The notes: a model not told the origin generated them from the letters alone. A stretch of DNA of 64,000 bases from an uncultured Bacteroidales bacterium (GCA_903916595.1 CAIWXI010000135.1:8584-72583), one strand, 5' to 3'; positions 2,660 through 60,141 are shown, counted from the stretch's first letter. Program-made: numbers and translations.

Positions 2660-3352
2660 ATGAACAAGGTAGTACAAAATGCACAGGAGGCGATCCTCGG
2701 AATAGAAAGCCACATGACCCTTATGCTGGGTGGCTTCGGCCTCTGCGGAATCCCCGAAAATTGTATCGCGGCCCTGGCGGCTTCTGATCTTACAGGTCTC
2801 ACATGTATATCGAACAATGCAGGTGTCGACGGATTCGGTCTGGGTATGCTTCTGCGGAAGCACCAGATCCGTAAAATGATCTCTTCGTACGTGGGTGAAA
2901 ACAAGGAATTTGAGCGCCAGCTGCTAAGCGGTGAACTCGAAGTAGAACTCATACCCCAGGGAACGCTGGCTGAACGGATCCGCGCCGGCGGAGCAGGGAT
3001 TCCTGCGTTTTATGTCCCGGCAGGCTATGGTACTGAAGTTGCTGAGGGTAAACCGGTGCGGAAGTTTGGAGATAAAATGTACCTTGAAGAGCAGTGGCTC
3101 AAAGCCGATTTTGCTATTGTAAAAGCCTGGAAAGGTGATGCGAGCGGCAACCTGGTGTACCGGAATGTTGCCAATAACTTTAACCAGTCTATGGCAATGG
3201 CAGGAAAGATAACGATTGCAGAAGTTGAGGAACTTGTGCCGGTTGGCAGCCTGGACCCAAACCATATTCATACTCCGGGTGTATTCGTTCAAAGGATCTT
3301 CCAGGGAATGAACTATGAAAAGAGGATTGAATTTGTTACTGTCAGGGGTTAG
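2660..3352 (+). CDS. scoA: 3-oxoacid CoA-transferase subunit A
   Basis: 230 aa. LMLGGFGLCGIPE and the overall sequence are typical of the class I CoA-transferase A subunit (ScoA/AtoD/CtfA type). Followed by the B subunit. Confidence 0.9.
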   Translation: MNKVVQNAQEAILGIESHMTLMLGGFGLCGIPENCIAALAASDLTGLTCISNNAGVDGFGLGMLLRKHQIRKMISSYVGENKEFERQLLSGELEVELIPQGTLAERIRAGGAGIPAFYVPAGYGTEVAEGKPVRKFGDKMYLEEQWLKADFAIVKAWKGDASGNLVYRNVANNFNQSMAMAGKITIAEVEELVPVGSLDPNHIHTPGVFVQRIFQGMNYEKRIEFVTVRG

Positions 3353-3363
3353 GGGTTGGGGAT
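3344..3363. repeat. G-rich GGGGTT(A) units x3 containing the scoA stop codon
   Basis: Sequence is caGGGGttaGGGGttGGGGat. The TAG stop at 3350-3352 lies inside the unit. The 14-mer TAGGGGTTGGGGAT recurs on the minus strand at 48089-48102. Confidence 0.85.
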
Positions 3364-3367
3364 AAAT

Positions 3368-3521
3368 CGTACATCGTACATCGTACATCGTACATCGTAC
3401 ATCGTACATCGTACATCGTACATCGTACATCGTACATCGTACATCGTACATCGTACATCGTACATCGTAATTCGTACATCGTAAATCGTACATCGTAATT
3501 CGTACATCGTAATTCGTAAAT
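3368..3521. repeat. Heptamer tandem array CGTACAT, about 22 copies
   Basis: 14 perfect copies span 3368-3465. Eight degenerate copies (CGTAATT / CGTAAAT / CGTACAT) run to 3521. The array ends 7 nt before the scoB ATG. Confidence 0.95.
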
Positions 3522-3528
3522 CAATATT

Positions 3529-4185
3529 ATGTCTTTAGATAAAAACGGTATAGCAAAACGCATCGCCCGGGAAGTCCGCGACGGGTATTACGTCAACCTG
3601 GGCATTGGAATCCCTACCCTGGTGGCAAATTATGTCCCGGAGGGTATGCAAATCACGCTGCAGTCTGAAAACGGCTTACTTGGAATAGGTCCTTTCCCCA
3701 CAAAAGCCGAGGTTGATCCTGACCTTATCAATGCTGGCAAACAGACCATCACAGCCCTGCCGGGTGCGGCATTTTTTGATTCAGCGATGAGCTTTGCAAT
3801 GATTCGTGGCGGTCATATTGACCTTACGGTGCTTGGAGCATTCGAAGTCTCCGAAACAGGCGACATCGCCAGCTGGAAGATCCCGGGTAAACTCGTCAAG
3901 GGAATGGGTGGTGCAATGGACCTTGTAGCTTCTGCCAAAAATATCATTGTTGCCATGATGCATACAAATCCTCAGGGGGAGTCGAAACTGCTGAAGAAGT
4001 GTACCCTGCCGCTTACAGGTGTGGGTGTGGTAAAAAGAATTGTATCTGACCTTGCTGTACTGGATGTAACACCCCAGGGTTTCAAACTTTTGGAACGAGC
4101 CCCGGGTGTCAGTGTCGAAGAAATTATTAAAGCTACTGCAGGTAACCTGATCGTCGAGGGTGATATCCCCGAAATGCAGATCTGA
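3529..4185 (+). CDS. scoB: 3-oxoacid CoA-transferase subunit B
   Basis: 218 aa. Has the SENG motif (LQSENGLLG) that carries the catalytic glutamate of class I CoA-transferases. Confidence 0.9.
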   Translation: MSLDKNGIAKRIAREVRDGYYVNLGIGIPTLVANYVPEGMQITLQSENGLLGIGPFPTKAEVDPDLINAGKQTITALPGAAFFDSAMSFAMIRGGHIDLTVLGAFEVSETGDIASWKIPGKLVKGMGGAMDLVASAKNIIVAMMHTNPQGESKLLKKCTLPLTGVGVVKRIVSDLAVLDVTPQGFKLLERAPGVSVEEIIKATAGNLIVEGDIPEMQI

Positions 4186-15742: not shown

Positions 15743-15800
15743 TTCGCACCAATTGTTTATTTCTTTTGCGTGCTCATTACGGCTTCGCCGAACGCTATTT
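15743..15800. repeat. Dispersed intergenic leader element, copy A, ending in one CGCTATTT octamer
   Basis: About 85% identical to 57921-57974. It contains an identical 20-mer, tcattacggcttcgccgaac, at 15774-15793. Confidence 0.8.
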
Positions 15801-22454: not shown

Positions 22455-22588
22455 AATGCGTAGGTTGAAAGCTTGTAAAAGTAAGGCCAAATTAGTAAGG
22501 TAATGTTGCATGATCAGCATTTTTTTGAACAGTCACTTGTGAGTTTATTTTGCCATCTTCATGGCTTTCTATAGAAAAGCAGTATATT

Positions 22589-35927: not shown

Positions 35928-35937
35928 CACTGCGTTC

Positions 35938-36006: not shown

Positions 36007-36015
36007 GTTCCATAA

Positions 36016-36050: not shown

Positions 36051-36057
36051 ACTTTAC

Positions 36058-36065
36058 TACTTTTG
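36058..36065 (+). promoter_or_regulatory. -7 box TACTTTTG
   Basis: Matches TAnnTTTG and lies 22 nt upstream of the ATG at 36088, just after the repeat block. Confidence 0.45.
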
Positions 36066-37272: not shown

Positions 37273-37282
37273 TGAAATGGTG
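37267..37282. repeat. Two octamers, AAATAGTG and AAATGGTG, in inverse orientation to the downstream array
   Basis: They contain the MFS stop TAG at 37270-37272 and are complementary to CACCATTT units downstream. Confidence 0.8.
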
Positions 37283-37340
37283 AAAAATATTTATTTTCGT
37301 CATTACACGATTTCGCTGCTTTCTTTTATTTTTTTAATTT

Positions 37341-37436
37341 CACCATTTCACCATTTCACCATTTCACCATTTCACCATTTCACCATTTCACCATTTCACC
37401 ATTTCACCATTTCACCATTTCACCATTTCACCATTT
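37341..37436. repeat. Octamer tandem array CACCATTT x12 (perfect)
   Basis: 96 nt of perfect repeat, ending 5 nt before the GH35 ATG at 37442. Confidence 0.97.
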
Positions 37437-42946: not shown

Positions 42947-43796
42947 GTTTCTGATTTTTAAGTTTTGTTCCCAGTTCAATGGCAATCTTCAGGGCCTCAG
43001 CATCAATCCCTGAGCCCAGCCCGGATTGCTCCGTGAAGATAATTAAATTTTCGGTTTTAAGATTACCCAGCATTTTTTTGTCGGCCATAGGGCATCCGCC
43101 CAATCCGCCGATCACGCTGTCGAACCTCCTGCAACCCTGCAAATATGCGGCATCCACGACTTCAGACCAGTCATCGCCCGAAGTATGAAGATGCAATCCG
43201 AATTCCACGCAAGGAAAATCATGAATGAGCATGGAATAGACATCCGAAACGGTTTCTTTACTCACCGGGACTGATACATTCGAGAGCGGCATGGTCCTTA
43301 CACCCATCTTCTGCAGCCTATCAATGTTGTCGATGAGGAGTTCGTGACTCCATTCTTCGCCGTATGGTGTTCCGAAAGCCATGGAGACATATAGAATAAG
43401 GTTCTTTTCCTTTCTTGTACACAGGTTCAGAAGGTAATCGGTCATCCGCAGTGCATCATCGTATGTAGTATTCATATTGCGTCTGAGGAATTCAGGGGAA
43501 AACGAAAAAGGGTAGGAGATGCAGCTGATTTCCTCCCTTTCGGCAACGAGGTCTGCCCCTTTTTTATTTACCACCAGCATCATCAGCTTTGAACGGCTCG
43601 ATGAAAGGTCAAGCAAGTCAAGCACCTCCATGCTGTTGCTCATCTGGGGAATGGCTCTGGCCGAAACGCTGCTCCCGACCTCAACAGTATCGAAACCCAC
43701 TTTCAGCAAGGCATTGATGTAATCCACCTTTTGCTCCGTCGGAACAAACCGACTAAGTGCCTGCATACCCTCCCTCGGTGATTCGATGATCCTCAT
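42933..43796 (-). CDS. Hydroxymethylglutaryl-CoA lyase
   Basis: HMGL-like: ESPREGMQ, HLHTSGD (HxH) and GGLGGCP. I place the start at the ATG at 43796 (MRIIESP...). The track start at 43811 is TTG. Confidence 0.85.
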   Translation of the reverse strand: MRIIESPREGMQALSRFVPTEQKVDYINALLKVGFDTVEVGSSVSARAIPQMSNSMEVLDLLDLSSSRSKLMMLVVNKKGADLVAEREEISCISYPFSFSPEFLRRNMNTTYDDALRMTDYLLNLCTRKEKNLILYVSMAFGTPYGEEWSHELLIDNIDRLQKMGVRTMPLSNVSVPVSKETVSDVYSMLIHDFPCVEFGLHLHTSGDDWSEVVDAAYLQGCRRFDSVIGGLGGCPMADKKMLGNLKTENLIIFTEQSGLGSGIDAEALKIAIELGTKLKNQKHVID

Positions 43797-43832
43797 TTTA
43801 AAATGCTCCAATTAATTGTTGAAGAAAAAGTT

Positions 43833-43871
43833 GAATATCGAATATTGAACAACGAATTTCGAATATCGAAC
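43833..43871. repeat. Heptamer array GAATATC-type x5 (left arm)
   Basis: Sequence is gaatatc gaatatt gaacaac gaatttc gaatatc gaac. It is the reverse-complement family of 43882-43916. Confidence 0.85.
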
Positions 43872-43881
43872 TAATTTATTT

Positions 43882-43916
43882 CAATGTTCAATATTCAATA
43901 TTCGATATTCGACATT
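43882..43916. repeat. Heptamer array CAATATT / CGATATT x5 (right arm)
   Basis: Sequence is caatgtt caatatt caatatt cgatatt cgacatt. It ends 2 nt before the stop codon (43919-43921) of the HMGL-like gene. Confidence 0.85.
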
Positions 43917-43918
43917 CA

Positions 43919-44929
43919 TCATCCCCGTCCTGTAAGGTTCTTCGGTATTCTCCCATTTTTGATCGCTTCCGACCGTAGCCGGCGGCCGACTATCCGCTCG
44001 ACCATGTTCCCGATCTCGAGCACTTTATCGACATCAAGCTGGGTGTCTATCCCCATCTCATCCATCATCACGACCATATCCTCGGTTGAAACCAGTCCGG
44101 TGATATTGGGATCTTTGTAATAATAGCTTCCGGTGCCGCTCACGGGGACTCCGCTAACGAAATTGGCCGGCTGACCGCCTATTCCACCCATGGTCGATTC
44201 GAAATTGACCATGCCGGCCTGCAAGGCAGCCAGTACATTGGCAAGCCCCCATCCGCGGGTTGTATGGAAATGCACGATCTGCTTTTCGGGCCTGGGTATG
44301 GCATCGAGCAGCATCGAATAGTATTTGTATACCCTGTCGGGCGATGCGCTGCCGTCGTGATCGGCATGTTCCACGTCGTTTGCACCTATCTCGAACCAGC
44401 GTTTGGCAAACTCAATGGCCTTGCTTATCTCGGTGGGCCCTTCGATCGGACAGCCCCAGATCGTGCTTACGGTGCCGTTCACTTTCAGACCTGCTTCCCT
44501 GGCCAATGGAATCCATTTTTCGGCCATGGCCCAGTATTCGGCAAGCGAAAGACCGGAATTCTTCCTGTGATGTGATTCACTGGTCGATACCATCAGCAGG
44601 ATACGGTTTGGCCCCCAGCCTTCTTTCCTGGCCTGAATGGCTCTTTCGATGGCTTTCTCGCGGATGGTGATGGCCGTGATGGAAACCGTGTTGATAAGGT
44701 GTGCTACTTTCTTGCTGCTCCTGATGCCTTTTAGAAGGATATCGGAATCCTTGAACTGAGGCATGCTCTGCGGATTTCCAAGGTTCGTTAATTCAATATG
44801 CTTGTACCCGGCAAGAATGAGCTGCTCTGCAACCCAAACCTTGGCCTCGGTGGGAATAAAGGTTTCCTCATGCTGAAAACCGTCTCTTACGGTAATATCT
44901 CCCAGTGTTACTTTCTTCGGATAATTCAT
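43919..44929 (-). CDS. HMGL-like (pyruvate carboxyltransferase fold) lyase paralog, divergent
   Basis: 336 aa. Has ITVRDGFQHEE (R-D-G-x-Q) and VHFHTTRGWGLANVLAALQAG (HxH). The GGCP motif is replaced by GGIGGQP plus a roughly 20-aa insertion. Confidence 0.75.
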   Translation of the reverse strand: MNYPKKVTLGDITVRDGFQHEETFIPTEAKVWVAEQLILAGYKHIELTNLGNPQSMPQFKDSDILLKGIRSSKKVAHLINTVSITAITIREKAIERAIQARKEGWGPNRILLMVSTSESHHRKNSGLSLAEYWAMAEKWIPLAREAGLKVNGTVSTIWGCPIEGPTEISKAIEFAKRWFEIGANDVEHADHDGSASPDRVYKYYSMLLDAIPRPEKQIVHFHTTRGWGLANVLAALQAGMVNFESTMGGIGGQPANFVSGVPVSGTGSYYYKDPNITGLVSTEDMVVMMDEMGIDTQLDVDKVLEIGNMVERIVGRRLRSEAIKNGRIPKNLTGRG

Positions 44930-44944
44930 GGTTTTGCGTTATTG

Positions 44945-44986
44945 CGTTCTACGTTATTCAATATTCAATATTCGTTATTCGATATT
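44945..44986. repeat. Heptamer block CGTTATT / CAATATT / CGATATT x6
   Basis: Sequence is cgttcta cgttatt caatatt caatatt cgttatt cgatatt. Confidence 0.85.
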
Positions 44987-44994
44987 CATCCGGG

Positions 44995-45050
44995 CGTTCT
45001 AAGTAATTCGACATTCGATATTCAATGTTCGCTATTCGATATTCGTTATT
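44995..45050. repeat. Heptamer block x8, same family
   Basis: Sequence is cgttcta agtaatt cgacatt cgatatt caatgtt cgctatt cgatatt cgttatt. It contains the carboxylase alpha stop codon (tta at 45046-45048). Confidence 0.85.
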
Positions 45051-47046
45051 CTCTCCTCTCCAGGTCCACCAGCGCGGTACTCGTCTCAACCATCTGGTTC
45101 AGTTTAACATTCACTTTCTGTACAATGCCGTCGGCAGGTGCTGTGATCATGTTTTCCATTTTCATAGCTTCGATGATCAGAAGCACTTTGCCTTTCTTTA
45201 CTTCGTCGCCCGGGTTTACGTTGATCTTGGTAACCTTGCCGGGCATAGGTGAAGTAATATGGCCTCCTTCCTGACCAACACTGTCAAACGAAGCGGCCGA
45301 TACAGTTTCGGTAAGAAGGTCGGCCCTCTGCATAGTGTAAAGGAAGCCGCCTGTACTCACGCAGCCCTGATTGCCTTTGTCTTCGCTTACATAAACCACG
45401 TGATCGTGCCCGTTGATTGTGCATGCCAGACGACCGCCGTTCCAGGTTTCGATAGCGCAGCTGTATGTGTTTCCCGAGATCTCAAAGCCGAAATTGTTGT
45501 TACCGCTCCGGCTCACTTTCACTTCAAGGCCCTTTGCTCCGGCTTTCAAACCGATCTTCATCAGGTTGCGCCAATAGCCTATCTGCTGCCAGACACTGGG
45601 TTTTTCGCAGCCTGATGCCAGCGAATTCGAGAGGCTTGCCATAAGGTAGCCCGTTACGGGAACATGCAGGGGGAACTTCTCTTTTTCTGATTCCATCGAA
45701 GCGACCAGGCCCTGAAGGTGTTCATCGATGAACCTGGTGGTTATGGCATTGCTTACAAATTCCTTGCTTTGCATTAAAGCTGTCAGGAAGGAAATATTGG
45801 TTTTTACACCGTGGATGACATAGTCCTGAAGCGCAGTAACCATGATCCTCGATGCTTCCTCCCGGTCTTCACCCCATACCACCAGCTTGCAGATCATGGG
45901 GTCGAAAGAACTTTTTATTTCGGTTTGGGCAGCGATTCCGGTGTCTATTCTTATTCCAGGAATGCACGGCTCCTTGTAAAGGCTCATTTTACCGGGCGAT
46001 GGCTGGAAATTGTTAGATGGGTCTTCAGCATAGATCCTGCATTCTATGGCATGCCCTCGCTGCATCACATCCTCTTGCCGTATCCTCATCGGATGCCCGG
46101 AAGCAATAAGGATCTGTTCTTCCACGATGTCGACACCGGTCACCATTTCCGTTACCGGATGCTCAACCTGGATGCGGGTGTTCATCTCGAGGAAGTAAAA
46201 GTTAAGGTCCTTGTCGACCAGGAATTCAATGGTCCCGGCGCTGGTATAGCCGGCTTCTTTTCCGATTTTCACGGCAGCTTCTCCCATTCTCAGGCGAACC
46301 TCAGAGCTCAGGGTGGGGGAGGGAGATTCTTCAATGATCTTTTGATAACGTCTCTGGATAGAGCATTCCCTTTCGAAAAGATGGATCACATTCCCATGCT
46401 CGTCGCCCAGTATCTGCACCTCGATATGCCTGGGCTCGACAATATATTTTTCGATGTAAACGGTTTCATCACCGAAATACGCTTTTGCCTGCCTGGCTGC
46501 ACTCTCAATAGCTTCTTCAAGTTCTTCAGGCTTGTACACTATTCGCATGCCTTTGCCTCCACCACCTGCAGCTGCTTTGAGCAAAACAGGAAAGCCGATT
46601 TTTGGCGCGGTCGAAATGAGTTCTTCTGCTCTACCGGTAACGCCTTCAGTGATTGGGATATTGATCTTTTTGGCGAAATTTCTGGCCTCAATTTTGTTCC
46701 CCATTACCTGCATCGCCACTGCATCGGGACCGATGAAAATAATGCCTGCATCATGGCAGGCTGCTACGAACAGCGGGTTCTCGGCCAGGAAGCCGTAGCC
46801 GGGATGTATGGCGTCGGCACCCGCCTTCTTTGCGGTCTCAACGATCTTCGCGATGTTCAGGTAAGTCTCGCTGAGCTCCGAATGCCCTATGCAAAAGGCT
46901 TCGTCGGCCTGGGCCACATGCAGGGAATCGTGGTCGATCTCAGAATACACCGCTACGGTCCGTATTCCCATCTTCTTCGCTGTACGTATGATCCTGCAGG
47001 CGATTTCGCCCCGGTTTGCTATTAATAACTTGCTGATTTGTTTCAT
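45046..47046 (-). CDS. Methylcrotonyl-CoA (acyl-CoA) carboxylase alpha subunit: biotin carboxylase plus biotinyl domain
   Basis: The ATG at 47046 gives MKQISKLLIANRGEIACRIIRT.... Has an ATP-grasp core and a C-terminal biotin attachment motif, EAMKME. Confidence 0.88.
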   Translation of the reverse strand: MKQISKLLIANRGEIACRIIRTAKKMGIRTVAVYSEIDHDSLHVAQADEAFCIGHSELSETYLNIAKIVETAKKAGADAIHPGYGFLAENPLFVAACHDAGIIFIGPDAVAMQVMGNKIEARNFAKKINIPITEGVTGRAEELISTAPKIGFPVLLKAAAGGGGKGMRIVYKPEELEEAIESAARQAKAYFGDETVYIEKYIVEPRHIEVQILGDEHGNVIHLFERECSIQRRYQKIIEESPSPTLSSEVRLRMGEAAVKIGKEAGYTSAGTIEFLVDKDLNFYFLEMNTRIQVEHPVTEMVTGVDIVEEQILIASGHPMRIRQEDVMQRGHAIECRIYAEDPSNNFQPSPGKMSLYKEPCIPGIRIDTGIAAQTEIKSSFDPMICKLVVWGEDREEASRIMVTALQDYVIHGVKTNISFLTALMQSKEFVSNAITTRFIDEHLQGLVASMESEKEKFPLHVPVTGYLMASLSNSLASGCEKPSVWQQIGYWRNLMKIGLKAGAKGLEVKVSRSGNNNFGFEISGNTYSCAIETWNGGRLACTINGHDHVVYVSEDKGNQGCVSTGGFLYTMQRADLLTETVSAASFDSVGQEGGHITSPMPGKVTKINVNPGDEVKKGKVLLIIEAMKMENMITAPADGIVQKVNVKLNQMVETSTALVDLERRE

Positions 47047-47059
47047 TACTTCAGTTTTT

Positions 47060-47137
47060 AAGTAGCGAAGTAGCGAAGTGGCGAGGTCGCGAAATTTCGC
47101 CATTTCACCATTTCGCTATTTCGCTATTTCGCTATTT
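47060..47137. repeat. Octamer-built imperfect palindrome: AAGTAGCG-type x5 facing CGCCATTT / CACCATTT / CGCTATTT x3
   Basis: The centre is gcgaaa|tttcgc at 47089-47100. Arms 47060-47094 and 47095-47129 give 35 positions: 28 Watson-Crick pairs, 5 G-T pairs on the plus strand and 2 mismatches. Contains the hydratase stop codon (47124-47126). Confidence 0.85.
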
Positions 47138-47924
47138 CTTTTACCCACCCCGGCTTTCTCTTCTCCAAAAACGCCTTCATCCCCTCCTGCCCCTCTTCCG
47201 AGACCCTGATCTCGGCGATCATGCGTGCCGTGTATTCAATAGCCTCCTTCATCGTAAGGGTGTTGGAGACTTTGTCGATAAGGGTTTTGCAGTGGCTCAT
47301 GGCGGCCGGACCGCTGCTTCTGAGCTCGGCAATGACCTTTTCCACCGCTGCATCGACTTCGGCAGCCGGAAGCGAACGGTTCACCAGCCTGAAGGACTCT
47401 GCTTCCTTACCCGAAATCCTGCGACCGGTAAGCATCAGCTCCCTGGCACCGTACTCGCCAACACGTTTGATCACGTAAGGCGAAATGCAGGCAGGCACAA
47501 TGCCGATCTTAACTTCCGAAAGCGAAAATACTGAATCATCGCTGCAATAAGCCATATCACAGGCTGACAGAAGTCCGTTTGCTCCACCCAGTACCGAACC
47601 ATGGGCCACAGCAATAGTCGGCTTTGCACACGTATATATCGTGTAAAAACATTCAGCCAGAAACAGGCTTTCCTGATAATTTTTTTCCCAGGAATTCTTT
47701 GCCACGTCTTTCATCCAGTTCAGGTCAATCCCTGCACAGAAACTTTTTCCGTTGCCGCGAAGCACAACACAGATAACCCCGTCCATACGCTGAATGCCTG
47801 TAAAAACATCGGTCAGCTCCTGCAGCATGAGCTCGTTGAAAGCATTGTGTTTCTCAGGCCGGTTCAGCCTGATCGTAAGCACCCTATTGGTGGTAAGCGT
47901 TTCAATCGTGTTGTATGCTTTCAT
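47124..47924 (-). CDS. Enoyl-CoA hydratase (methylglutaconyl-CoA hydratase by context)
   Basis: 266 aa of the crotonase fold (FCAGIDL, oxyanion-hole regions). Lies between the carboxylase subunits. Confidence 0.85.
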   Translation of the reverse strand: MKAYNTIETLTTNRVLTIRLNRPEKHNAFNELMLQELTDVFTGIQRMDGVICVVLRGNGKSFCAGIDLNWMKDVAKNSWEKNYQESLFLAECFYTIYTCAKPTIAVAHGSVLGGANGLLSACDMAYCSDDSVFSLSEVKIGIVPACISPYVIKRVGEYGARELMLTGRRISGKEAESFRLVNRSLPAAEVDAAVEKVIAELRSSGPAAMSHCKTLIDKVSNTLTMKEAIEYTARMIAEIRVSEEGQEGMKAFLEKRKPGWVKEIAK

Positions 47925-47944
47925 ATTTTAGAAATATTTGTTAA

Positions 47945-47983
47945 CTGGGTTACTGGGTTACTGGGTTACTGGGTTACTGGGTT
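47945..47983. repeat. Octamer array CTGGGTTA, about 4.9 copies
   Basis: Four perfect copies and one partial copy, starting 21 nt upstream of the hydratase ATG at 47924. Confidence 0.9.
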
Positions 47984-47994
47984 GAATCGAAATT

Positions 47995-48022
47995 CAAAGT
48001 TCGTTGTTCAATATTCGATATT
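47995..48022. repeat. Heptamers CAAAGTT CGTTGTT CAATATT CGATATT
   Basis: Same family as the arrays at 43882 and 44945. Confidence 0.7.
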
Positions 48023-48066
48023 CAAATGATTTTGGTCAGCACGAACAGGAAAAAGCCTTCCAATCC

Positions 48067-48101
48067 AACCCCCAATCCCCAACCCTCAATCCCCAACCCC
48101 T
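48067..48101. repeat. Heptamer array AA(C/T)CCCC x5 (G-rich on the minus strand)
   Basis: The minus strand reads TAGGGGTTGGGGATTGAGGGTTGGGGATTGGGGGTT. It begins with the stop codon of the carboxyltransferase gene. Confidence 0.9.
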
Positions 48102-49707
48102 ACATCCTAAACACCCCGTACTCTGTCTTGTCATACTTCTTATTCCGGCTTACAGCAATAGCCATTGCAAGCATCTTACGGGTGTCGGCAGGGTCTATGA
48201 TCCCGTCGTCCCAAAGCCTTGCCGTGCTGTAATAAGCCGAACCTTCATGATTATATTTTTGTAATATGCCGTCGAGCATCTTTTGCTTTTCTTCTGCGGA
48301 TAGGGCTTTCCCCTGTGCCCTAAGCTGGTCTTCCTTTACCGTGATAAGTACATTGGCTGCCTGTTCTCCCCCCATAACCGATATTTTTGAACTGGGGTAC
48401 ATCCACAGGAACCGGGGTTCGTAAGCTCTTCCGGCCATGGCGTAATTGCCGGCGCCAAACGAACCTCCGAAGATCAGGGTGAACTTGGGCACGTTGGCAT
48501 TGGCAACGGCATGCACGAACTTGGCCCCGTCGCGTGCAATGCCAGCTCTCTCGTATTGCTTTCCAACGATGAACCCGGTCACGTTCTGCATGAACAGGAT
48601 AGGAATATTCCTCGAGGTGCAGAGCTCGACGAAATGGGCTCCTTTAAGGGCTGTCTCACCGAAAAGCACACCGTTGTTCGCGATGATACCTATCGGGAGC
48701 CCCATAATATGGGCGAAACCCGTGACAATGGTCGGTGCATACCGCTCCTTGAACTCGTGGAACAGGCTTCCGTCGACGATTCTGGCGATGATCTCACGCG
48801 CATCCACCGGTTTTTTCAGGTCGAGCGGGAGTATACCGTACAACTCATCCGCAGGATAAAATGGTTCCTGAATTTTCTGCATCTGAAGCTCCTGAAACTC
48901 CCGCCTCCGTATCGATTCAAAGATATTCCTGCAGATCTGTATCGCGTGCTCGTCGTTCATCGCAAGGTGGTCGGCAACACCGGAAATGCTGGTATGCACA
49001 TCGGCTCCGCCAAGGTCCTCGGCGCTGACTTCCTCGCCTGTGGCAGCCTTCACCAATGGCGGACCGCCAATGAAAATAGTCCCCTGCTTGCGCACGATGA
49101 TGGTCTCGTCGCTCATGGCAGGCACGTAAGCCCCGCCTGCAGTACAGGATCCCATAACTACCGCTATCTGCGGAATGCCTTTGGAAGACAAGCGGGCCTG
49201 GTTGAAGAAAAATCTTCCGAAATCATATTTGTCGGGAAACACCGAAGCCTGCTCGTGAAGGAAAACACCCCCGGAATCGACCAGATACACACACGGCAAA
49301 CGATTTTCAAGAGCGATCTCCTGGGCACGTACATGCTTCTTGATGCCTTCCTTCATGTAAGTGCCCCCTTTGACCGTTGCGTCATTTGCCACGATCATCG
49401 TCTCCATGCCATGGATCACTCCGATGCCGGTGATCACCCCGGCCGAAGGAAATTCGTTGTTGTAAAGATCATAGGCTGCAAGCGCAGAGAGTTCCATGAA
49501 TGGAGTGTTTCTGTCGACCAGAAGGTCTATCCTCTCCCTGGCCAGCAGTTTGCCCCTTTCTTTATGGCGTTTGACGGATTGCTCCGAGCCGCCTTCCTTC
49601 ACTTTTTCGAGGGTCTGCCTGTAAATATTCAGAATTTTCAGGTATTCTTCCTTGTTTTTCAGGAATTCAGGGGAAGAAGTATCTATTTTACTTTCAATAC
49701 GAAACAT
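48100..49707 (-). CDS. Methylcrotonyl-CoA carboxylase beta subunit (carboxyltransferase)
   Basis: 535 aa. Full-length carboxyl_trans family sequence (GGAYVPAMSD..., GSFGAGNYAM...). Confidence 0.9.
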   Translation of the reverse strand: MFRIESKIDTSSPEFLKNKEEYLKILNIYRQTLEKVKEGGSEQSVKRHKERGKLLARERIDLLVDRNTPFMELSALAAYDLYNNEFPSAGVITGIGVIHGMETMIVANDATVKGGTYMKEGIKKHVRAQEIALENRLPCVYLVDSGGVFLHEQASVFPDKYDFGRFFFNQARLSSKGIPQIAVVMGSCTAGGAYVPAMSDETIIVRKQGTIFIGGPPLVKAATGEEVSAEDLGGADVHTSISGVADHLAMNDEHAIQICRNIFESIRRREFQELQMQKIQEPFYPADELYGILPLDLKKPVDAREIIARIVDGSLFHEFKERYAPTIVTGFAHIMGLPIGIIANNGVLFGETALKGAHFVELCTSRNIPILFMQNVTGFIVGKQYERAGIARDGAKFVHAVANANVPKFTLIFGGSFGAGNYAMAGRAYEPRFLWMYPSSKISVMGGEQAANVLITVKEDQLRAQGKALSAEEKQKMLDGILQKYNHEGSAYYSTARLWDDGIIDPADTRKMLAMAIAVSRNKKYDKTEYGVFRM

Positions 49708-51784: not shown

Positions 51785-52548
51785 ATTCTGAAGCAGTCAT
51801 ACGGGTAAAGAATGTGCATAAATCCTTTAAAACGGTTCATGCCGTGAGAGGGATCGACCTGGATATTCATCCGGGGCAGTTTGTGGCGCTGCTTGGTCCC
51901 AACGGAGCCGGCAAGACCACCCTGGTCGAGATGATTGAAGGAATACAGAAGCCCGACAGAGGGGAGATCCTGATCACCGGGAAACCCTGGAGGGGGAACG
52001 AGAAAGAGCTCCGTAAGATCATCGGGCTTTCACTTCAGGAAACCCGCTTCATCGATAAACTCAGGCTGTTCGAGACTCTGAGGCTGTTCGCCAGTTTTTT
52101 CGGGCTTGGAAAGGAGCGTTGCGAAGAAGTTATGAACCTTGTAGGGCTGGAGGAGAAACGACAAGCGTATGTGGTCAATCTTTCGGGCGGACAGCGTCAG
52201 AGGCTGGCTCTCGGTGTGGCTCTGTTGAACAAGCCGAAGATCCTGCTGCTTGATGAACCGACCACGGGGCTAGATCCCCAGGCCAGAAGGGAGGTGTGGA
52301 TGATTTTGAAAAAGCTGAAGGATGCTTCTTCGACCTCACTCATCCTCACAACCCATTATATGGAAGAAGCCGAACAGCTCTGCGATTATATCGTGATCAT
52401 CGACCATGGGACGATTCTGAAAGAAGGCACACTGCCTGACCTGCTCGGAACCTCATCCGCAGTCACGAAAAAGGAAGAATATCATGGCCCGCCAAGGAAT
52501 CTTGACGAACTTTTCATTGAGCTTACGGGGAGGCATTTAAATGAATAA
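51781..52548 (+). CDS. ABC transporter ATP-binding protein (ABC-2 type)
   Basis: Has Walker A GPNGAGKT, the signature LSGGQRQR and Walker B LLLDEP. Its ATG overlaps the relA-like stop in ATGA. Confidence 0.9.
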   Translation: MNSEAVIRVKNVHKSFKTVHAVRGIDLDIHPGQFVALLGPNGAGKTTLVEMIEGIQKPDRGEILITGKPWRGNEKELRKIIGLSLQETRFIDKLRLFETLRLFASFFGLGKERCEEVMNLVGLEEKRQAYVVNLSGGQRQRLALGVALLNKPKILLLDEPTTGLDPQARREVWMILKKLKDASSTSLILTTHYMEEAEQLCDYIVIIDHGTILKEGTLPDLLGTSSAVTKKEEYHGPPRNLDELFIELTGRHLNE

Positions 52549-52579
52549 AATGGTGAAATGGTGAAATGGTGAAATGGTT
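52548..52579. repeat. Octamer array AAATGGTG x3 plus AAATGGTT
   Basis: This is the reverse-complement family of CACCATTT. It overlaps the last base of the TAA stop (52546-52548) and contains the permease ATG at 52566. Confidence 0.9.
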
Positions 52580-53708
52580 AAATAGCCAACTTTGGCAGCT
52601 CATCCTTGCCAACGCCCGTGAACTGCTTCGCGAGCCGGCGGTTCTGTTCTGGGGAATTGTGTTTCCTATCCTGATGTCGCTGGGGCTTGGCGTCGCATTT
52701 ACTAAAAAGAAAGATGTAACTGTGAATATCGCCGTGATTGGGCGTAACCATCTGGTTCAGGCGCCGGGCGACAGCGCTTCGGTGATCCGTAATTTTTTAC
52801 AGGATAACAGGGCAGCGCTCAGGGTCGGTAAAGACGGTGCTCTGTCACGTGAACTCAGGGTGCCGGATGATAAGCTGGGTGGGACAACATATATTTTCGA
52901 AAATATGGATTGGAATACGGCCATGGTTTCGCTGAAGCGGGGTAATCTGAATCTTGTGATGGATGAAGACAATGGGCAGATAAGCTACCATTTCGACCCT
53001 ATGAACCCTGATGCACAGCTGACCTACCTGAAGTTTTCCAAACTGATGAAAGAACCTGGCATGCTGATAAAGCCTTCGGAGACTGAGATCAGGCCGCTTA
53101 CTGTTAACGGTACTCGTTATATTGACTTTCTTGTACCCGGACTGATCTGCATGGGGGTGATGATGTCGTGCATGTGGGGTGTGAGTTATGATATCATCGA
53201 AAAACGTTCCAAGAAGCTTCTTCGAAGGATGATTGCAACTCCCATGAAACGTTCGAATTTCCTGGTGGCGCTGATTACAGTTAGGATAACAATGAATTTC
53301 ATGGAGGCCGGATTGTTACTTTTCTTTAGCTGGCTGGTTTTCGATATTACTATTCAGGGAAGTGTTCCCGCGCTTCTGCTGTTTTTTATTTCGGGCAACA
53401 TTGCTTTTGCCGGCATTGCCGTATTCCTTTCATGTAATACTTCCAAAACAGAGATCGGCAATGGCTTGATAAACCTGATAAGCATGCCTATGATGGTGCT
53501 TTCGGGTATCTTTTTTTCGTATCATAACTTTCCTGCCTGGAGCTTGCCGGTAATCAGGAAATTCCCACTCACTATGATGGCCGATGGAGTTCGAGGCATC
53601 TTCATTGAAAGCACTGGATTTTCGCAAGTCCTCCTGCCTGCAGCAATCATGCTCGCTATTGGAGTCGTGTTTTTTACTGCCGGGCTGAAGCTTTTCAAAT
53701 GGCATTGA
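52566..53708 (+). CDS. ABC-2 type transporter permease
   Basis: 380 aa. It has an N-terminal TM helix, a large loop and a six-helix ABC-2 membrane domain. Confidence 0.85.
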   Translation: MVKWLNSQLWQLILANARELLREPAVLFWGIVFPILMSLGLGVAFTKKKDVTVNIAVIGRNHLVQAPGDSASVIRNFLQDNRAALRVGKDGALSRELRVPDDKLGGTTYIFENMDWNTAMVSLKRGNLNLVMDEDNGQISYHFDPMNPDAQLTYLKFSKLMKEPGMLIKPSETEIRPLTVNGTRYIDFLVPGLICMGVMMSCMWGVSYDIIEKRSKKLLRRMIATPMKRSNFLVALITVRITMNFMEAGLLLFFSWLVFDITIQGSVPALLLFFISGNIAFAGIAVFLSCNTSKTEIGNGLINLISMPMMVLSGIFFSYHNFPAWSLPVIRKFPLTMMADGVRGIFIESTGFSQVLLPAAIMLAIGVVFFTAGLKLFKWH

Positions 53709-54497: not shown

Positions 54498-54519
54498 TCG
54501 CAGTCGATCTCAATAAAAT

Positions 54520-54547
54520 CGTACATCGTACATCGTACATCGTACAT
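54520..54547. repeat. Heptamer array CGTACAT x4
   Basis: Four perfect copies of the same unit as 3368-3521, followed by a T8 run. It lies 30 nt upstream of tRNA-Pro. Confidence 0.95.
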
Positions 54548-56804: not shown

Positions 56805-57917
56805 TTACATGTGTGCTTCGGCGAGTGTCCCGTTAATCAGGTAATTGCCCATGCACTGCGAAGCCAGGCATGAATGTACCGGTAAAATCCCCAGCAGATC
56901 CCCACATCTGATCGAGAGGAACACTTCATTACTTACTTTAATCACGCCATGTTCCTGTGAAACAGATTTCACGTAGCAATCATAAAGTGGCTCGGACCAT
57001 CCTTCGGCCGAGAGGGTACAAACAAACCCATAAATAGTTTTATCTACATAGAAAACAGATTCTTTTGACAAGTGAACGGCGCCTCCGTAAACTACTATTT
57101 CCTTTCTTGTTGCATTTTTTGACACTACCGGGCAGGCAAGGCAAACAGCAATTCTGCCGGCTTCGCAACTCCCTATAACAGTCTGCATAACATCGAAAAA
57201 GACAAAATTTCCGGGTCTGATCTCATCAATGCCATCAAAGTTGCTCAGAAGGCTGCATGCAGGCGTGTCGCCAACAGAAAGAGTCAATGAGTCCGGACCG
57301 CTGTCAAACTTGGCTTTTAGTGAACCAAGCAGCCGGAATGCCTCCTTACTGATCATTTCGACCTCATTTTTGCATCTTGCATTATAAGTATGTCCGGTAT
57401 GGGTGAGGAATCCTTTAAACAGCAATGAGTAGCTTTGCCGGCAGGTGTTGATGATTTTTTCAATCTCTTCGATTTCGGAAGGTATCAACCCTGTCCTGTT
57501 GTAGCCGGTGTCTATTTTAATATATACTCCTGTCGGTTCTTCTGAGTTTTTTTTATGCCGGCTGAAAAGTTCTAAAGGTTCGGCCATCGTTACAAGAATA
57601 TTCAGTCTGGCTTTATCGGAGAGATCGATGATTTCATCCGACTCCCGAAGGTTAAGGGGGAAAGCAATAGTAATATCGTCCCAGCCGTCTTCATTGAAAT
57701 ATTTAGCCATTGAAACACTCGAAACAGTAATTGATTTAATACCCTCTTCCCTGAACCATCGCCCCATTTGCTTTGACTGGTGGGTTTTGAAATGCGGCCT
57801 GAAGTTCACGCCAAGCCTTGCGGCTTTTTCGGCCATCCACCTGATATTTTCCCTGCAGATGGCTTCATCAACCAACAACGTGGGGCGTTTAATACTATCC
57901 AGAGATATATTCACCAT
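56805..57917 (-). CDS. D-TA family PLP-dependent enzyme (D-threonine aldolase / D-serine dehydratase-like, alanine racemase N-domain fold)
   Basis: 370 aa. PTLLVDE...FRPHFKTHQS has the PLP-lysine context, and the C-terminal domain has a conserved H..C pattern. The start codon lies inside a CACCATTT unit at 57912-57919. Confidence 0.75.
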   Translation of the reverse strand: MVNISLDSIKRPTLLVDEAICRENIRWMAEKAARLGVNFRPHFKTHQSKQMGRWFREEGIKSITVSSVSMAKYFNEDGWDDITIAFPLNLRESDEIIDLSDKARLNILVTMAEPLELFSRHKKNSEEPTGVYIKIDTGYNRTGLIPSEIEEIEKIINTCRQSYSLLFKGFLTHTGHTYNARCKNEVEMISKEAFRLLGSLKAKFDSGPDSLTLSVGDTPACSLLSNFDGIDEIRPGNFVFFDVMQTVIGSCEAGRIAVCLACPVVSKNATRKEIVVYGGAVHLSKESVFYVDKTIYGFVCTLSAEGWSEPLYDCYVKSVSQEHGVIKVSNEVFLSIRCGDLLGILPVHSCLASQCMGNYLINGTLAEAHM

Positions 57918-57920
57918 TTA

Positions 57921-57967
57921 TTCACGAATTGTCTATTTTATTTGTGTTCATTACGGCTTCGCCGAAC
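57921..57967. repeat. Dispersed intergenic leader element, copy B
   Basis: Aligns to 15743-15793. The 20-mer tcattacggcttcgccgaac is identical at 57948-57967. A weaker third copy lies at about 37290-37320. Confidence 0.8.
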
Positions 57968-58006
57968 ACCATTTCACCATTTCACCATTTCACCATTTCA
58001 CCATTT
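57967..58006. repeat. Octamer tandem array CACCATTT x5
   Basis: Five perfect copies, ending 2 nt before the DPP-IV stop codon (58009-58011). Confidence 0.95.
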
Positions 58007-58008
58007 CA

Positions 58009-60141
58009 CTAAAGGTAATCCCTGAAGTACTCGTACATCTTCACATTCAGATGCACCCTGTCCTTACCACGAACATTGTGCTCATGCCCGGGATAGATAA
58101 AATAATCGACCTGTTTGCCTTCATCCACACATTTTTTAATGAACGACAGTCCGTTCTGGGGCACCACGGTGCCGTCCTGGTATCCCTGTATAATAAGAAG
58201 TTTGCCATTGAGTTGTTTCACATAATTAAGCAGGGAAGCATTTTTATAACCATCGGGATTAGTCTGGGGCATATCCATATAGCGTTCACCGTACATTACT
58301 TCATAGTATTTCCAGTCGATCACCGGCCCGCCGCAGACTCCGACTTTGAATACACCGGGGTTCCTTAGCATCATTGAAATAGTCATAAAGCCCCCGTAAG
58401 ACCAGCCGTTAATACCAATCCTTGTGCTGTCAACAAAGGGTAGCGACTTCAGGTATTTCACCCCGCACATCTGGTCTTCCACCTCATCATCTCCAAGGTG
58501 GCGGAAAACAGCCTGCTCAAACTCCTTTCCCCTTTCCGATGTACCTCTGTTGTCAAGTGTAAATACCACATTACCCCTTTCGGCCAGGTAATTCAGGAAA
58601 AGACCGGATCCACCCAGCCAGCTATCGGTCACCATTTGCGAATGCGGCCCTCCGTAAACATAGATGATCACAGGGTAGCGTTTCGATGAGTCAAAGTCAA
58701 CGGGTTTGATCATTCGGCAATACAGCCCGGTATTCTGATTGTTTTTGATCGTGAAAATGCTCAGCTTTCCGATCTTAAAATATTTCAGAGGATTGGCATC
58801 GGTGAGAAGTTCCTGTTTAACGGCCCCATGGGCATCCAGGAGTTCTATTTTACGGGCCATTGAAGGATTTGAGTAGGTGTCGAGAATAAAATTGCCATCC
58901 TTACTTATTTTTGGATTATGGCTTCCTGCGGATGAGGTGATCCCGCTTACCAGTCCTGATTTAAGGTCAAGTGAACAGAGAAGCCTCCCGATGGGATTCC
59001 CTTTATTGCACATAAAGAAGATTTTTTCACCTTTTGCATCTGTGCCATTGAATGAGCTCACTTCCCAGGGGCCTTTGGTAAGTTGTTTAATAAGTTTTCC
59101 CGAGGATTCATACAGGTAAAAATGATTATTTCCATCGCGGCGGCTCAGCCAGAGAAACCGGGAGGCATCTTTGTTTATGAATTCTGGACCGTTGAGGGGT
59201 TCCACGTATTTAGGATCGGTTTCAAGAAAGAGAGTTTTAATAAACTTCCCGGTACCGGAATCATAGGTTTTCATCCACATGCTGTCCTGCTCACGGTTTA
59301 ATACAGCAACATAAATGAGTTTGCCATCGGGACTCCAGGTGACATTGGTCAGATATTTTGCAGTGTCGGCTCCTGTTTCCAGTTCAACATGAGTTCCGGT
59401 GGAAATAGAAAAAACATGCACATTTACACTGTGGCTCTTTTGCCCTGCCATTGGATATTTTGTTGCATCTAAAACAGCTATGGGATCTGTGATATCAACT
59501 GTGGGGTAAGATGCCACCCCGGTTTCGTTCATATAATAATACGCCAGCCTGTCCCCCTCGGGCGACCAGAAAGTTCCCTTGCTGATGCCGAACTCATTAC
59601 GGTGGACGCGGTTCGATCCAAATGAAATATCAGGATTGCCGGAGCTTTCAACTTTGAGTTCCTTTCCATCTACACTTACAAAAAGGGCATTTTTAATAGT
59701 ATATGCTGTATTGAACTGCGGATTGGTCAGGTCGGTATTCTCTACATTTCCGGGCCAGGAATTGAGTTTTCGCAGAATGCCATCCGCCGTGTTATAACTG
59801 AATAATGTATTCTTTGAAATGAAACTGAAAGTGTTTGTTTTATATGCAGTTACAACCGGGAATCTGCTCAGGGTATCTGCTTTGGTTTCTTTAAGCCTGG
59901 AATTCAATACACTAAGCCGGAGCAGGGTATCCACCCGTGAATTATCGGCATACCCTTTGACCAGGCAGTTCTTAGCTACGAAATACCAGGTGTTGTCATC
60001 CCCGTTCCATTGCAGCTGCGAAAGATTTTTTGCTATGAGTCCCGTTCCCAGCGTGGCTTCGTCCATGCTCATCAGTTTCGACTGGGCAAGAAGAAGGCCC
60101 GGAAGAACCAGGCCTGCAATGATTATAATTAAGCGTTTCAT
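58009..60141 (-). CDS. S9 family serine peptidase, dipeptidyl-peptidase IV type
   Basis: 710 aa. It has a signal peptide, an N-terminal DPP-IV beta-propeller region and the catalytic GWSYGG with downstream Asp/His regions. Confidence 0.9.
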   Translation of the reverse strand: MKRLIIIIAGLVLPGLLLAQSKLMSMDEATLGTGLIAKNLSQLQWNGDDNTWYFVAKNCLVKGYADNSRVDTLLRLSVLNSRLKETKADTLSRFPVVTAYKTNTFSFISKNTLFSYNTADGILRKLNSWPGNVENTDLTNPQFNTAYTIKNALFVSVDGKELKVESSGNPDISFGSNRVHRNEFGISKGTFWSPEGDRLAYYYMNETGVASYPTVDITDPIAVLDATKYPMAGQKSHSVNVHVFSISTGTHVELETGADTAKYLTNVTWSPDGKLIYVAVLNREQDSMWMKTYDSGTGKFIKTLFLETDPKYVEPLNGPEFINKDASRFLWLSRRDGNNHFYLYESSGKLIKQLTKGPWEVSSFNGTDAKGEKIFFMCNKGNPIGRLLCSLDLKSGLVSGITSSAGSHNPKISKDGNFILDTYSNPSMARKIELLDAHGAVKQELLTDANPLKYFKIGKLSIFTIKNNQNTGLYCRMIKPVDFDSSKRYPVIIYVYGGPHSQMVTDSWLGGSGLFLNYLAERGNVVFTLDNRGTSERGKEFEQAVFRHLGDDEVEDQMCGVKYLKSLPFVDSTRIGINGWSYGGFMTISMMLRNPGVFKVGVCGGPVIDWKYYEVMYGERYMDMPQTNPDGYKNASLLNYVKQLNGKLLIIQGYQDGTVVPQNGLSFIKKCVDEGKQVDYFIYPGHEHNVRGKDRVHLNVKMYEYFRDYL

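Follow-up and report, generated by a model that had tools for sequence, protein, structure and literature searches.

Tandem arrays of heptamers and octamers have been known since 1990, and in some bacteria they form a sizeable share of the intergenic DNA. Among them are the short tandemly repeated repetitive (STRR) heptamers of heterocystous cyanobacteria (CCCCAGT, TTGGTCA, and CAACAGT), reportedly described by Mazel et al. in 1990. Repetitive extragenic palindromic (REP) sequences, bacterial interspersed mosaic elements (BIMEs), and REP doublets forming hairpins (REPINs) are dispersed intergenic single imperfect palindromes of about 20 to 40 nucleotides (nt), with a conserved head and tied to a gene for a REP-associated tyrosine transposase (RAYT). 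Here we describe arrays of 7- and 8-nt units located at gene boundaries in a 64,000-nt stretch of DNA from an uncultured Bacteroidales bacterium (GCA_903916595.1 CAIWXI010000135.1:8584-72583; the whole stretch is called the window, and positions are counted from its first base). These arrays belong to the class of long simple sequence repeats (LSSR) and STRR-like repeats, here with 7- and 8-nt units in a freshwater member of the Bacteroidales, and are not a new system.

G-rich heptamers, GGGAATC in Xanthomonas and GGGGA(C/T)T in Nostoc/Anabaena, are about 90% intergenic and lie chiefly between co-directional genes; their G-rich strand is the coding strand where they lie within 50 bp of or overlap a stop codon and the noncoding strand where they lie just upstream of open reading frames (ORFs) (Rehm 2015, PMC4692102). 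Each of those genomes holds 70 to 75 convergent inverted pairs, the repeats are transcribed, and their lengths differ between related species while their sites persist, with 83% of the Xcc repeats kept in Xac (PMC4692102). Placement, strand rule, convergent pairs, transcription, and length change all recur in the window or in the wider sample described below. Unlike the Rehm heptamers, however, the window arrays fall into six or more families, with units of either 7 or 8 nt that are mostly A/T-rich and incapable of forming G-quadruplexes. The motif G3+N1-7 x4 occurs in only 2 of 19 arrays (48065-48100 and 47944-47983), so that the arrays as a group lack the G tracts of the Rehm type, and units AAATGGTG, GAATATC, CGTACAT, and AAATAGCG cannot form quadruplexes at all. 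The phylum is also different, and, in contrast to the persistence between Xcc and Xac, one unit gives way to another at the same junction among close relatives.

Heptamer direct repeats, TAACTGA and others, have also been reported in marine Beggiatoaceae, in some Cyanobacteria, and in five Bacteroidetes, including Paludibacter propionicigenes of the Bacteroidales (MacGregor 2015, PMC4679880). The first-pass annotation of the window, which knew of no equivalent described for Bacteroidota, is therefore superseded on this point, and the placement was itself known from PMC4692102. Like the window arrays, TAACTGA repeats are spacer heptamers that often overlap the upstream stop codon and end just before the downstream start, with other heptamers sharing the same spacers. 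In Beggiatoaceae there is essentially one unit, present in 2 to 6 copies and oriented to start codons, whereas the window has many units in up to 22 copies, anchored at stops and frequently in inverted pairs; TAACTGA itself occurs in the window as five single copies and no doublet. As summarized in PMC4679880, LSSR with 5- to 11-nt units (Mrazek, Guo & Shah 2007) occur far beyond chance, are dominated by heptamers, are proposed to arise by slippage, and are excluded from coding sequence unless their period is a multiple of 3. According to the same summary, the ten richest genomes of that survey include no Bacteroidetes, and polarity and inverted pairing are not mentioned in it.

The likeness to cyanobacterial STRR heptamers proposed for the window is apt, although doublets of CCCCAGT, TTGGTCA, or CAACAGT are absent from both of its strands; AACCCAGT resembles STRR1 but is an octamer. 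The parallel drawn with REP/BIME elements breaks down on anatomical grounds. Like the window arrays, these elements are dispersed, intergenic, often situated between convergent or co-directional genes, and able to form hairpins in mRNA, but they do not change length in unit steps. The window holds tandem 7- and 8-mers rather than a 20- to 40-nt imperfect palindrome and contains no RAYT or other transposase gene; the arms vary in unit and number, and only a core of about 35 to 45 nt recurs, three times. The geometry of the arrays is already known, and what is new is the host lineage, the A/T-rich 7- and 8-nt families that are incapable of forming quadruplexes, the filled and empty sites, and the graded turnover.

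Tandem Repeats Finder and our own scan recovered 16 arrays of three or more copies in the window, with units of 7 or 8 nt running head to tail up to 22 times, compared with a mean of 0.2 expected by chance (30 third-order Markov resamples of the window). With shorter arms included, there are 19 arrays totaling 861 bases. The first-pass annotation had listed about 20, and both scans and direct reading match nearly every coordinate, except that 15793-15800 and 57912-57919 each consist of a single unit. For four arrays the scans give the extents 33239-33269, 35748-35777, 36015-36047, and 48007-48025, slightly shorter than the spans used below. Intergenic DNA makes up 7.1% of the window (curated gene map) and contains 795 of the 861 array bases, the other 66 being the last or first codons of genes; the arrays thus represent 17.5% of the window's intergenic DNA. 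They occupy 11 of the 52 gene junctions, with 9 among the 38 co-directional ones and 1 each among the 7 convergent and the 7 divergent ones, and these placement counts bear out the proposal that positions are nonrandom and tied to stops and starts. The statement that no array lies inside a gene body holds for 7- and 8-nt units in three or more copies, gene bodies holding only chance matches of 2.1 to 2.8 copies and repeats whose periods are multiples of 3 (12, 21, 24, and 54). As in the LSSR class, units whose length is not a multiple of 3 are kept out of coding sequence.

Identical units recur at unlinked junctions: CGTACAT at 3366 and 54518, AAATGGTG/AAATAGCG at four junctions, and GAATATC at three. 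The GAATATC arrays, grouped within 4.2 kb, hint at a local clustering of unit families, but the CGTACAT and GGGGTTR pairs lie 45 to 51 kb apart. Pfam confirmed the gene names initially assigned, which include CoA transferase A and B, GH2, MFS, GH35, two HMGL-like proteins, biotin carboxylase, enoyl-CoA hydratase, carboxyltransferase, RelA/SpoT, an ABC ATPase, an ABC-2 permease, a D-threonine-aldolase-like enzyme, and DPP-IV. The genes flanking the 11 array-bearing junctions share no functional theme, and the description of the arrays as a network, in the sense of a coordinated system, was not borne out. Rfam returned two tRNAs and nothing else in the window. Exact protein matches come from lake-water metagenome assemblies and the metagenome-assembled genome GCA_903826745.1, the sequencing runs containing the window sequence are lake and freshwater metagenomes, and the nearest species-level relatives are uncultured Bacteroidales/Bacteroidota from lakes. 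An assembly artifact was rejected as the source of the arrays, which recur between the same flanks in at least 10 independent assemblies. Similar arrays are present in the closed chromosome of a relative (OY820914.1).

At eight of the nine co-directional junctions with arrays, the array begins on or at the upstream stop codon; the sole exception is the array of the cytidylate-kinase-like (cmk-like) gene (54518), which begins 20 nt after the stop. Between the last array of a co-directional junction and the downstream start lie 5 to 37 nt. Five spacers are not fully taken up by their arrays; for these, the combined probability of stop contact by chance is estimated at about 3e-8, assuming uniform placement with 3/(L-a+1) per spacer. 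On direct reading, all ten stop-codon placements given in the first-pass annotation proved correct, as did the start-codon placements of scoB, GH35, and the ABC-2 permease.

The arrays have a fixed polarity, with the G- or purine-rich strand being the sense strand after a stop codon and its C- or pyrimidine-rich complement preceding a start codon. Read on the sense strand, the arrays touching stops are AAATGGTG/AAATAGTG at the MFS, ABC ATPase, and DPP-IV genes; AAATAGCG at the hydratase gene; GAATATC at the biotin carboxylase gene and the first HMGL-like gene (HMGL-like a); and GGGGTTR at scoA and the carboxyltransferase gene. Those preceding starts are complements of these or other units with more C than G (CACCATTT, CGCTACTT, GATATTC, AACCCAGT, and CGTACAT), and C-rich arms also precede the starts of the GH2 and MFS genes. 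Because the polarity extends to A/T-rich units that are incapable of forming quadruplexes, quadruplexes are not the common denominator.

The same polarity was found in a wider sample of at least 120 metagenome stretches containing exact (AAATGGTG)3 (877 kb, 26 to 68% G+C), which amounts to about 1 Mb with the loci of relatives. Among the matches listed, once loci redundant with the window or one another were removed, 30 arrays of this family within 10 nt of a stop codon read AAATGGTG in the sense direction and 4 read CACCATTT. Within 5 nt of a stop, AAATGGTG arrays in the listed loci and those of relatives have G>C on the sense strand in 34 cases versus 3, and arrays of other units in 57 versus 12, such that arrays of all units at stops are G-rich on the sense strand in 91 versus 15. 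At co-directional junctions among the matches listed, the G-rich version of AAATGGTG lies at a median of 3 nt from the stop and the C-rich version at a median of 11 nt from the start. A bias in ORF definition was rejected as the cause of the stop-side polarity, only 7 arrays having been absorbed into C-terminal tails.

Among the matches listed, the partner arm is downstream of the G-rich AAATGGTG arm in 17 arrays (15 pairs) and upstream in none, and 114 of 131 AAATGGTG arrays have no partner arm. When all 7- and 8-nt arrays of the listed loci, the window, and the relatives are considered, the 5' arm is the purine-richer one, with G>C, in 38 of 39 inverted pairs, a few of which represent one locus in sister strains; the lone exception is at 14638-14697 of contig L012. 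The unit families involved include CAGGATG, GGATGCA, GCAAGAT, GAATATC, TAATGTGC, GGTGAGAT, GAGTTAA, GAGAATG, and ATGTACG. The right arms have no stop codon in any frame in 34 of the 39 pairs and no ATG in 35. The G-arm-first rule also holds in eight junctions called convergent, three of which have both arms on stop codons and at least one of which (L033 5580) owes its label to a spurious ORF and is in fact co-directional. It applies as well to an insertion in a RecJ linker of L033 that was verified to be in frame. In that contig, a G-arm-first heptamer palindrome at 3467-3599 is translated in frame within the linker of a RecJ-like protein (...SRMQDARSGMQDARSGMQDARS...).

Several of the arrays had been described as inverted pairs able to form hairpins, and the predicted RNA folds are indeed strong, ranging from -20 to -36 kcal/mol with z scores of -4.8 to -5.6. 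Values are -36.2 kcal/mol (z = -4.75) for the junction from HMGL-like a to the second HMGL-like gene (HMGL-like b), -35.1 kcal/mol (z = -5.6) for hydratase to biotin carboxylase, and -20.0 kcal/mol (z = -5.35) for MFS to GH35; the nested palindrome at 35740-36060, folded as DNA, reaches -70.3 kcal/mol (z = -5.9), and strong hairpins are thus present at four window junctions. Unpaired single arrays are less structured as RNA than shuffled controls (z = +1.3 to +1.6). Leaders with C-rich arrays fold at -0.3 to -5.1 kcal/mol versus a mean of -9.7 kcal/mol for 40 other leaders in the window. Owing to G-U pairs, the G-rich strand folds better as RNA than its complement in 233 versus 17 arrays.

Array length changes in whole units between near-identical strains, as anticipated in the first-pass annotation for slipped-strand events and as in the LSSR class. 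Among ten other contigs that are 99.6 to 99.9% identical to the window, only perfect arrays vary, always by whole units. The CGTACAT array (3366-3522) has 15, 16, at least 19, or 22 units among assemblies, the ATTTCACC array has 7.5, 11.5, 12.5, or 13.5 copies, and the ACTGGGTT array has 5 copies, or 3 in two other assemblies. As the latter two arrays, of 100 and 40 nt, are shorter than the assembler k-mer, their length differences are not collapse artifacts; arrays longer than the k-mer terminate contigs, and two contigs (L003 and L004) end inside the longest array. Imperfect arrays are identical among these contigs with the exception of one unit, which came to match its neighbors through two substitutions (CGTTATT to CAATATT in L009).

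A sister strain with about 98% identity (contigs L068, L080, and L085) shows larger changes. The two GAATATC arrays after its biotin carboxylase stop are replaced by (ATGTACG) x19-24 in the stop-proximal orientation, ATGTACG being the unit of the window's scoB and tRNA arrays, and the joint on the stop side is the same in two assemblies. At this spot relative L022 carries a single ATGTACG with an identical right flank; the long array of the sister strain is therefore an expanded old form, or the single copy is a contracted one. In L080, two CGCTATTT units have become CACCATTT. The sister strain further has two units fewer in the GGGGTTG array and one fewer in the AAATGGTG array, and its DPP-IV spacer is without the 49-nt nonrepeat core and is filled entirely by an array of 8 units. 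Units are thus homogenized within arrays, and whole arrays are replaced at about 95 to 98% genome identity. Two of the sister contigs, L085 (3061-3229) and L080 (5346-5472), are identical over the hydratase and biotin carboxylase genes and diverge after the (ATGTACG)n array, one leading to an HMGL-like gene and the other to a GTPase-type gene (CysN-like by eye); this is probably a chimeric join through the long array, or else a real rearrangement at the array.

Related species with 80 to 92% carboxyltransferase identity and conserved gene order carry other units at four junctions of the operon: CTGGATGA x9-19; GATGTCA palindromes; GATGCGG with CTCATGG; GATTACTG with GGTACTG; ACGAATT, GGGATNN, and CGCAAYAA; and GAAGAGT x8 and x17. 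The biotin carboxylase-HMGL junction alone has six array types in the seven genomes compared. Some relatives (L022 and L014) instead have junctions without an array, which are 8 to 10 nt long or overlapping as opposed to the 77- to 175-nt array spacers of the window, indicating that the arrays are insertions. The cmk-like gene-tRNA array is orthologous in five genomes (the window and four related species), and its unit has changed from CGTAAWT (CGTAAAT/CGTAATT) in the relatives to CGTACAT in the window lineage. The operon itself (41801-49707) is a leucine/isovalerate catabolic set of carboxyltransferase, enoyl-CoA hydratase, biotin carboxylase, two HMGL-like, and acyl-CoA dehydrogenase genes, whose order is conserved in five related species. 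In the closed relative L014, a small gene for an RF-1-domain protein (ArfB-like, 96 amino acids [aa] as called) lies between inverted heptamer-like arms at 19103-19811 and is followed by (GTCAGAAG) x6. The small genes between arms in the sampled loci encode YtxH, DUF5674, an RF-1-domain protein, and a lipoprotein, and no gene of the four-helix-bundle family PF05635/TIGR02436 was seen in the window or among ORFs bracketed by inverted arms.

The ATPase/permease junction shows how much an array can alter. In four relatives the two genes overlap by 8 nt (ATGAATAA), and the permease begins MNKLRNSQLW; L012 has a different palindromic insert there. The window keeps the ATGAATAA bases and continues with (AAATGGTG) x4.5, with the result that the former permease ATG opens a 7-codon dead-end ORF (MNKMVKW-stop) and the permease starts at an ATG within the array (MVKWLNSQLW), its N-terminal MVKWL being array encoded. 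The last AAATGGTG unit before the permease has lost its TGA. Arrays can therefore rewrite stops, starts, and a few terminal codons.

Two Logan contigs of a related strain from one lake metatranscriptome, one of 860 nt spanning the HMGL palindrome and one of 470 nt spanning the ATPase/permease array with one unit fewer, suggest that arrays are co-transcribed with the flanking genes; being assembled contigs, they show read-through and not transcript ends, and DNA carry-over is possible. In four lake metatranscriptomes (X25, X26, X28, and X29), k-mers of the CACCATTT array (57754-58060) have summed contig depths of 11 to 1257, far above those of the flanking genes, indicating that the RNA, or DNA carried over with it, is rich in such arrays from numerous loci or organisms.

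Individual arrays follow the same plan with local differences. On the plus strand, direct reading places units GGGGTTA, GGGGTTG, and GGGATAA at 3344-3363, with the G-rich strand as the sense strand and the scoA stop (TAG, 3350-3352) inside the first unit. It is followed on the same strand by (ATCGTAC/CGTACAT) x22.4 at 3366-3522, which ends 6 nt before the scoB ATG (3529) and has perfect units at its 5' side and older variants (CGTAATT/CGTAAAT) at its 3' side. The array (ATCAGAT) x4.4 at 33239-33273, which is nearly self-complementary with GATATC cores, occupies the 22-nt gap between two convergent stops (33236-33238 and 33261-33263).

The divergent GH2/MFS spacer contains a nested palindrome. 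Its outer left arm, a G-rich TATCAGA/TGGCGGA array at 35748-35783, is C-rich on the GH2 sense strand and 91% complementary to the outer right arm, a C-rich ATCCGCC/ATCTGCT array at 36015-36050 that lies 37 nt before the MFS ATG (36088). Within this spacer (35748-36050), the heptamer arms surround 36-nt direct repeats, of which there are four (35783-35925), and then a pair of 38-nt repeats that are partly the reverse complement of the 36-nt ones, and the whole palindrome is located where both promoters should be. Downstream of MFS on the plus strand, a short G-rich arm at 37267-37285 (AAATAGTG AAATGGTG AAA) contains the MFS stop (TAG, 37270-37272) in its first unit, and the C-rich arm (ATTTCACC) x12.5 at 37337-37436, a perfect array with 100% matches, ends 5 nt before the GH35 ATG (37442).

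The catabolic operon lies on the minus strand. Between HMGL-like a (stop, 43919) and HMGL-like b (start, 43796) is a heptamer palindrome at 43833-43918 (subarrays 43833-43870 and 43880-43918) that reads, on the sense strand, as GAATATY units after the stop and then as GATATTC units. Two direct arrays of the GAATATC type on the sense strand at 44945-45051 (subarrays 44955-44988 and 45006-45051) cover the biotin carboxylase stop (45046-45048) and lack structure as RNA. An octamer palindrome at 47060-47138 (subarrays 47060-47093 and 47094-47138), sense (AAATAGCG)n and then (CGCTACTT)n, encloses the hydratase stop (47124-47126) and ends 13 nt before the biotin carboxylase ATG at 47046. This ATG, and not the one at 47103, is most likely the start, given the 666-aa gene call in other assemblies and a Pfam domain beginning at residue 23, and the palindrome is therefore wholly spacer. 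Three arrays share the carboxyltransferase-hydratase spacer: (GGGGTTG/GGGATTG) x5 on the sense strand at 48065-48100, which begins at the carboxyltransferase stop (48100-48102) and matches the G-quadruplex motif; a short GAATATC-type array at 47995-48025, in mid-spacer; and the perfect array (ACTGGGTT) x5 at 47944-47983, sense AACCCAGT, which ends 19 nt before the hydratase ATG (47924).

The remaining arrays are (AAATGGTG) x4.5 on the plus strand at 52548-52583, which begins in the ATPase stop and supplies the permease start (ATG, 52566; MVKWL...); the perfect (ATCGTAC) x4.3 on the plus strand at 54518-54547, situated 30 nt before two tRNA genes; and (AAATGGTG) x5.4 on the sense strand at 57967-58009 (minus), which begins in the DPP-IV stop (58009-58011). 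The AAATGGTG unit contains GGTGA, an ATG two bases on, and then a TGA, such that an array forms overlapping MVKW-stop mini-ORFs in all three frames. At 52548-52583, at 57967-58009, and at the metagenome loci, it lies at stop codons in genomes of 26 to 68% G+C. Joined to the CACCATTT array near DPP-IV is a nonrepeat core, TATTTTATTTGTGTTCATTACGGCTTCGCCGAAC, at 57935-57966. Copies of this core (TTTATTT..TCATTACGGCTTCGCCGAAC), about 35 to 45 nt long, are found at 15765-15800, 37283-37330 (more diverged), and 57935-57968 and at 12470-12530 of L018, adjoining CACCATTT/CGCTATTT units in either orientation relative to transcription and containing a small CGGC-GAA-GCCG stem-loop; the core may represent the center of a composite arrangement, (AAATGGTG)n-core-(CACCATTT)n. 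The repeats within genes are of other kinds: in-frame repeats with periods of 12, 24, and 54 nt at 39732-39943, in an 839-aa ORF without a Pfam match (39270-41789), and period-21-nt repeats at 21554-21622, in a 406-aa ORF without a Pfam match (21300-22520).

A slipped-strand origin combined with an orientation filter is the account of the arrays that we regard as probable, if far from assured. Slipped-strand mispairing would create the arrays and change their length, and selection would act on them as a filter without their having been built for any purpose. Because 7- and 8-nt units would shift the frame inside genes, their survival would be limited to spacers, linkers, and gene tails. C is absent from all stop and start codons (TAA, TAG, TGA, ATG, GTG, and TTG); therefore, both kinds of codon abound in a C-poor strand and are missing from its complement. 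Downstream of a gene, a C-poor strand would usually close reading frames within a few units, at any copy number. Before a gene, a G-poor strand would offer no false starts and no fold, because it can form neither G-C nor G-U pairs, and the unfolded leader would stay open for ribosome loading, which matters because translation in Bacteroidota does not depend on Shine-Dalgarno pairing. The presence of both arms would add a strong intercistronic hairpin to the transcript, probably uncoupling or stabilizing cistrons as a side effect. We infer that the orientation passed by the filter is the one giving a clean end to translation after a gene and an open next leader free of false starts. Neither component serves as the sole cause of the polarity: frame closure was rejected in this role because 10 of the 39 purine-rich arms have no stop in any frame, and avoidance of upstream ATGs was rejected because the polarity holds in convergent junctions and in the RecJ linker.

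Several points weigh against a slippage-and-filter origin. Besides the 10 stop-free arms, the polarity persists where no stop or start is at stake (the RecJ linker and start-less convergent junctions), a pattern at least as compatible with a mechanistic cause as with selection. Units that recur at unlinked junctions, elsewhere in sister strains, and across 26 to 68% G+C are not easily attributed to independent slippage. The metagenome sample was seeded with one unit and is thereby enriched for array-rich genomes, and its genes are simple longest-ORF calls with crude start positions. Raw start-side counts in the listed loci show no bias; 22 arrays were swallowed by overextended ORF starts, with C>G in 19 versus 2, and a start-side bias (65 versus 33 overall) appears only after this overextension is corrected.

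The recurrence of units and the persistence of polarity raise the alternative that an active process, and not local slippage alone, writes or spreads the arrays, which we consider unlikely. It could be gene conversion or template switching between arrays, or a polar synthesis creating G-arm-first palindromes, either by fold-back priming from a self-pairing G/T-rich nascent strand or by addition of repeats at the two 3' ends of a break, whereby two G-rich strands would be left pointing to the center, like fused telomeres. Consistent with such a process are the same units at unlinked junctions of one genome, the third CGTACAT array at a different junction in the sister strain, the dominance of derived CGTACAT in two arrays 51 kb apart where relatives have CGTAAAT/CGTAATT, the array inserted into an 8-nt gene overlap without a clear seed, the 38-of-39 polarity over many unit families (including the RecJ linker and convergent junctions), and exact (AAATGGTG)3 in metagenome stretches of such disparate G+C content. 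The search for an enzyme argues otherwise: no RAYT, transposase, reverse transcriptase, or primase-polymerase gene was found in the window or among genes between inverted arms, the other sampled ORFs not having been scanned. No viral contig with (AAATGGTG)3 was found. Moreover, the lone ATGTACG in L022, where the sister strain has 19 to 24, fits expansion or contraction in situ, a cryptic 8-nt periodicity phased by AAA is already present in the ancestral ATPase/permease junction, and descent from few founders with unit drift could give a uniform polarity because inverting a whole palindrome leaves its polarity unchanged. That the polarity is the signature of a so far undescribed array-making or copying process common to distant phyla, rather than of junction-wise selection, we likewise doubt; if true, the arrays would be nonautonomous mobile DNA that colonizes junctions, rewrites stops and starts, and builds protein linkers.

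More doubtful still is that the arrays are dedicated regulatory elements of polycistronic mRNAs whose copy number tunes expression, whether as RNase III hairpins, 3' stabilizers, weak or bidirectional terminators, or multimeric sites for RNA- or DNA-binding proteins. The strong hairpins at four junctions, the precise placement at stops and 5 to 37 nt before starts, the retention of arrays at the same junctions across species despite unit change, and the abundance of array k-mers in lake metatranscriptomes would all suit such a role, as would the GGTGA of AAATGGTG, which we presume, from the 16S 3' tail, to be Shine-Dalgarno-like and which is accompanied in each unit by an ATG and a TGA. In Nostoc, deletion of heptamer repeats altered the output of a recO reporter (bioRxiv 10.1101/2022.06.06.494920). 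However, the unit at a given junction is not conserved between close relatives, some of which have no array, so that purifying selection acts on no specific site or structure; most arrays lack a partner arm, as counted above for AAATGGTG, and show no structure as RNA; two arrays are read through in transcript contigs; the only Rfam matches are the two tRNAs; and arrays are confined to 11 of 52 junctions with no common function. It is highly improbable that the arrays act as phase-variation (contingency) switches of adjacent genes. Copy number does vary in natural populations, and one array overlaps a start codon (ABC-2 permease), but because the first unit holds the stop and the last in-frame unit the start, a copy change shifts neither frame, natural variants of -1 and -2 units leave both ORFs intact, and the flanking genes are housekeeping catabolic genes rather than surface or restriction genes.

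The arrays present filled and empty versions of one junction in close relatives and show that an array can replace an overlapping stop and start and donate a start codon. Their turnover is graded, from unit steps at 99.9% identity through array replacement at 95 to 98% to other units at the same junction between species. They also break or misjoin short-read contigs and lengthen ORF calls at the 5' end, and lake metagenome studies could use them as very fine markers of strains.

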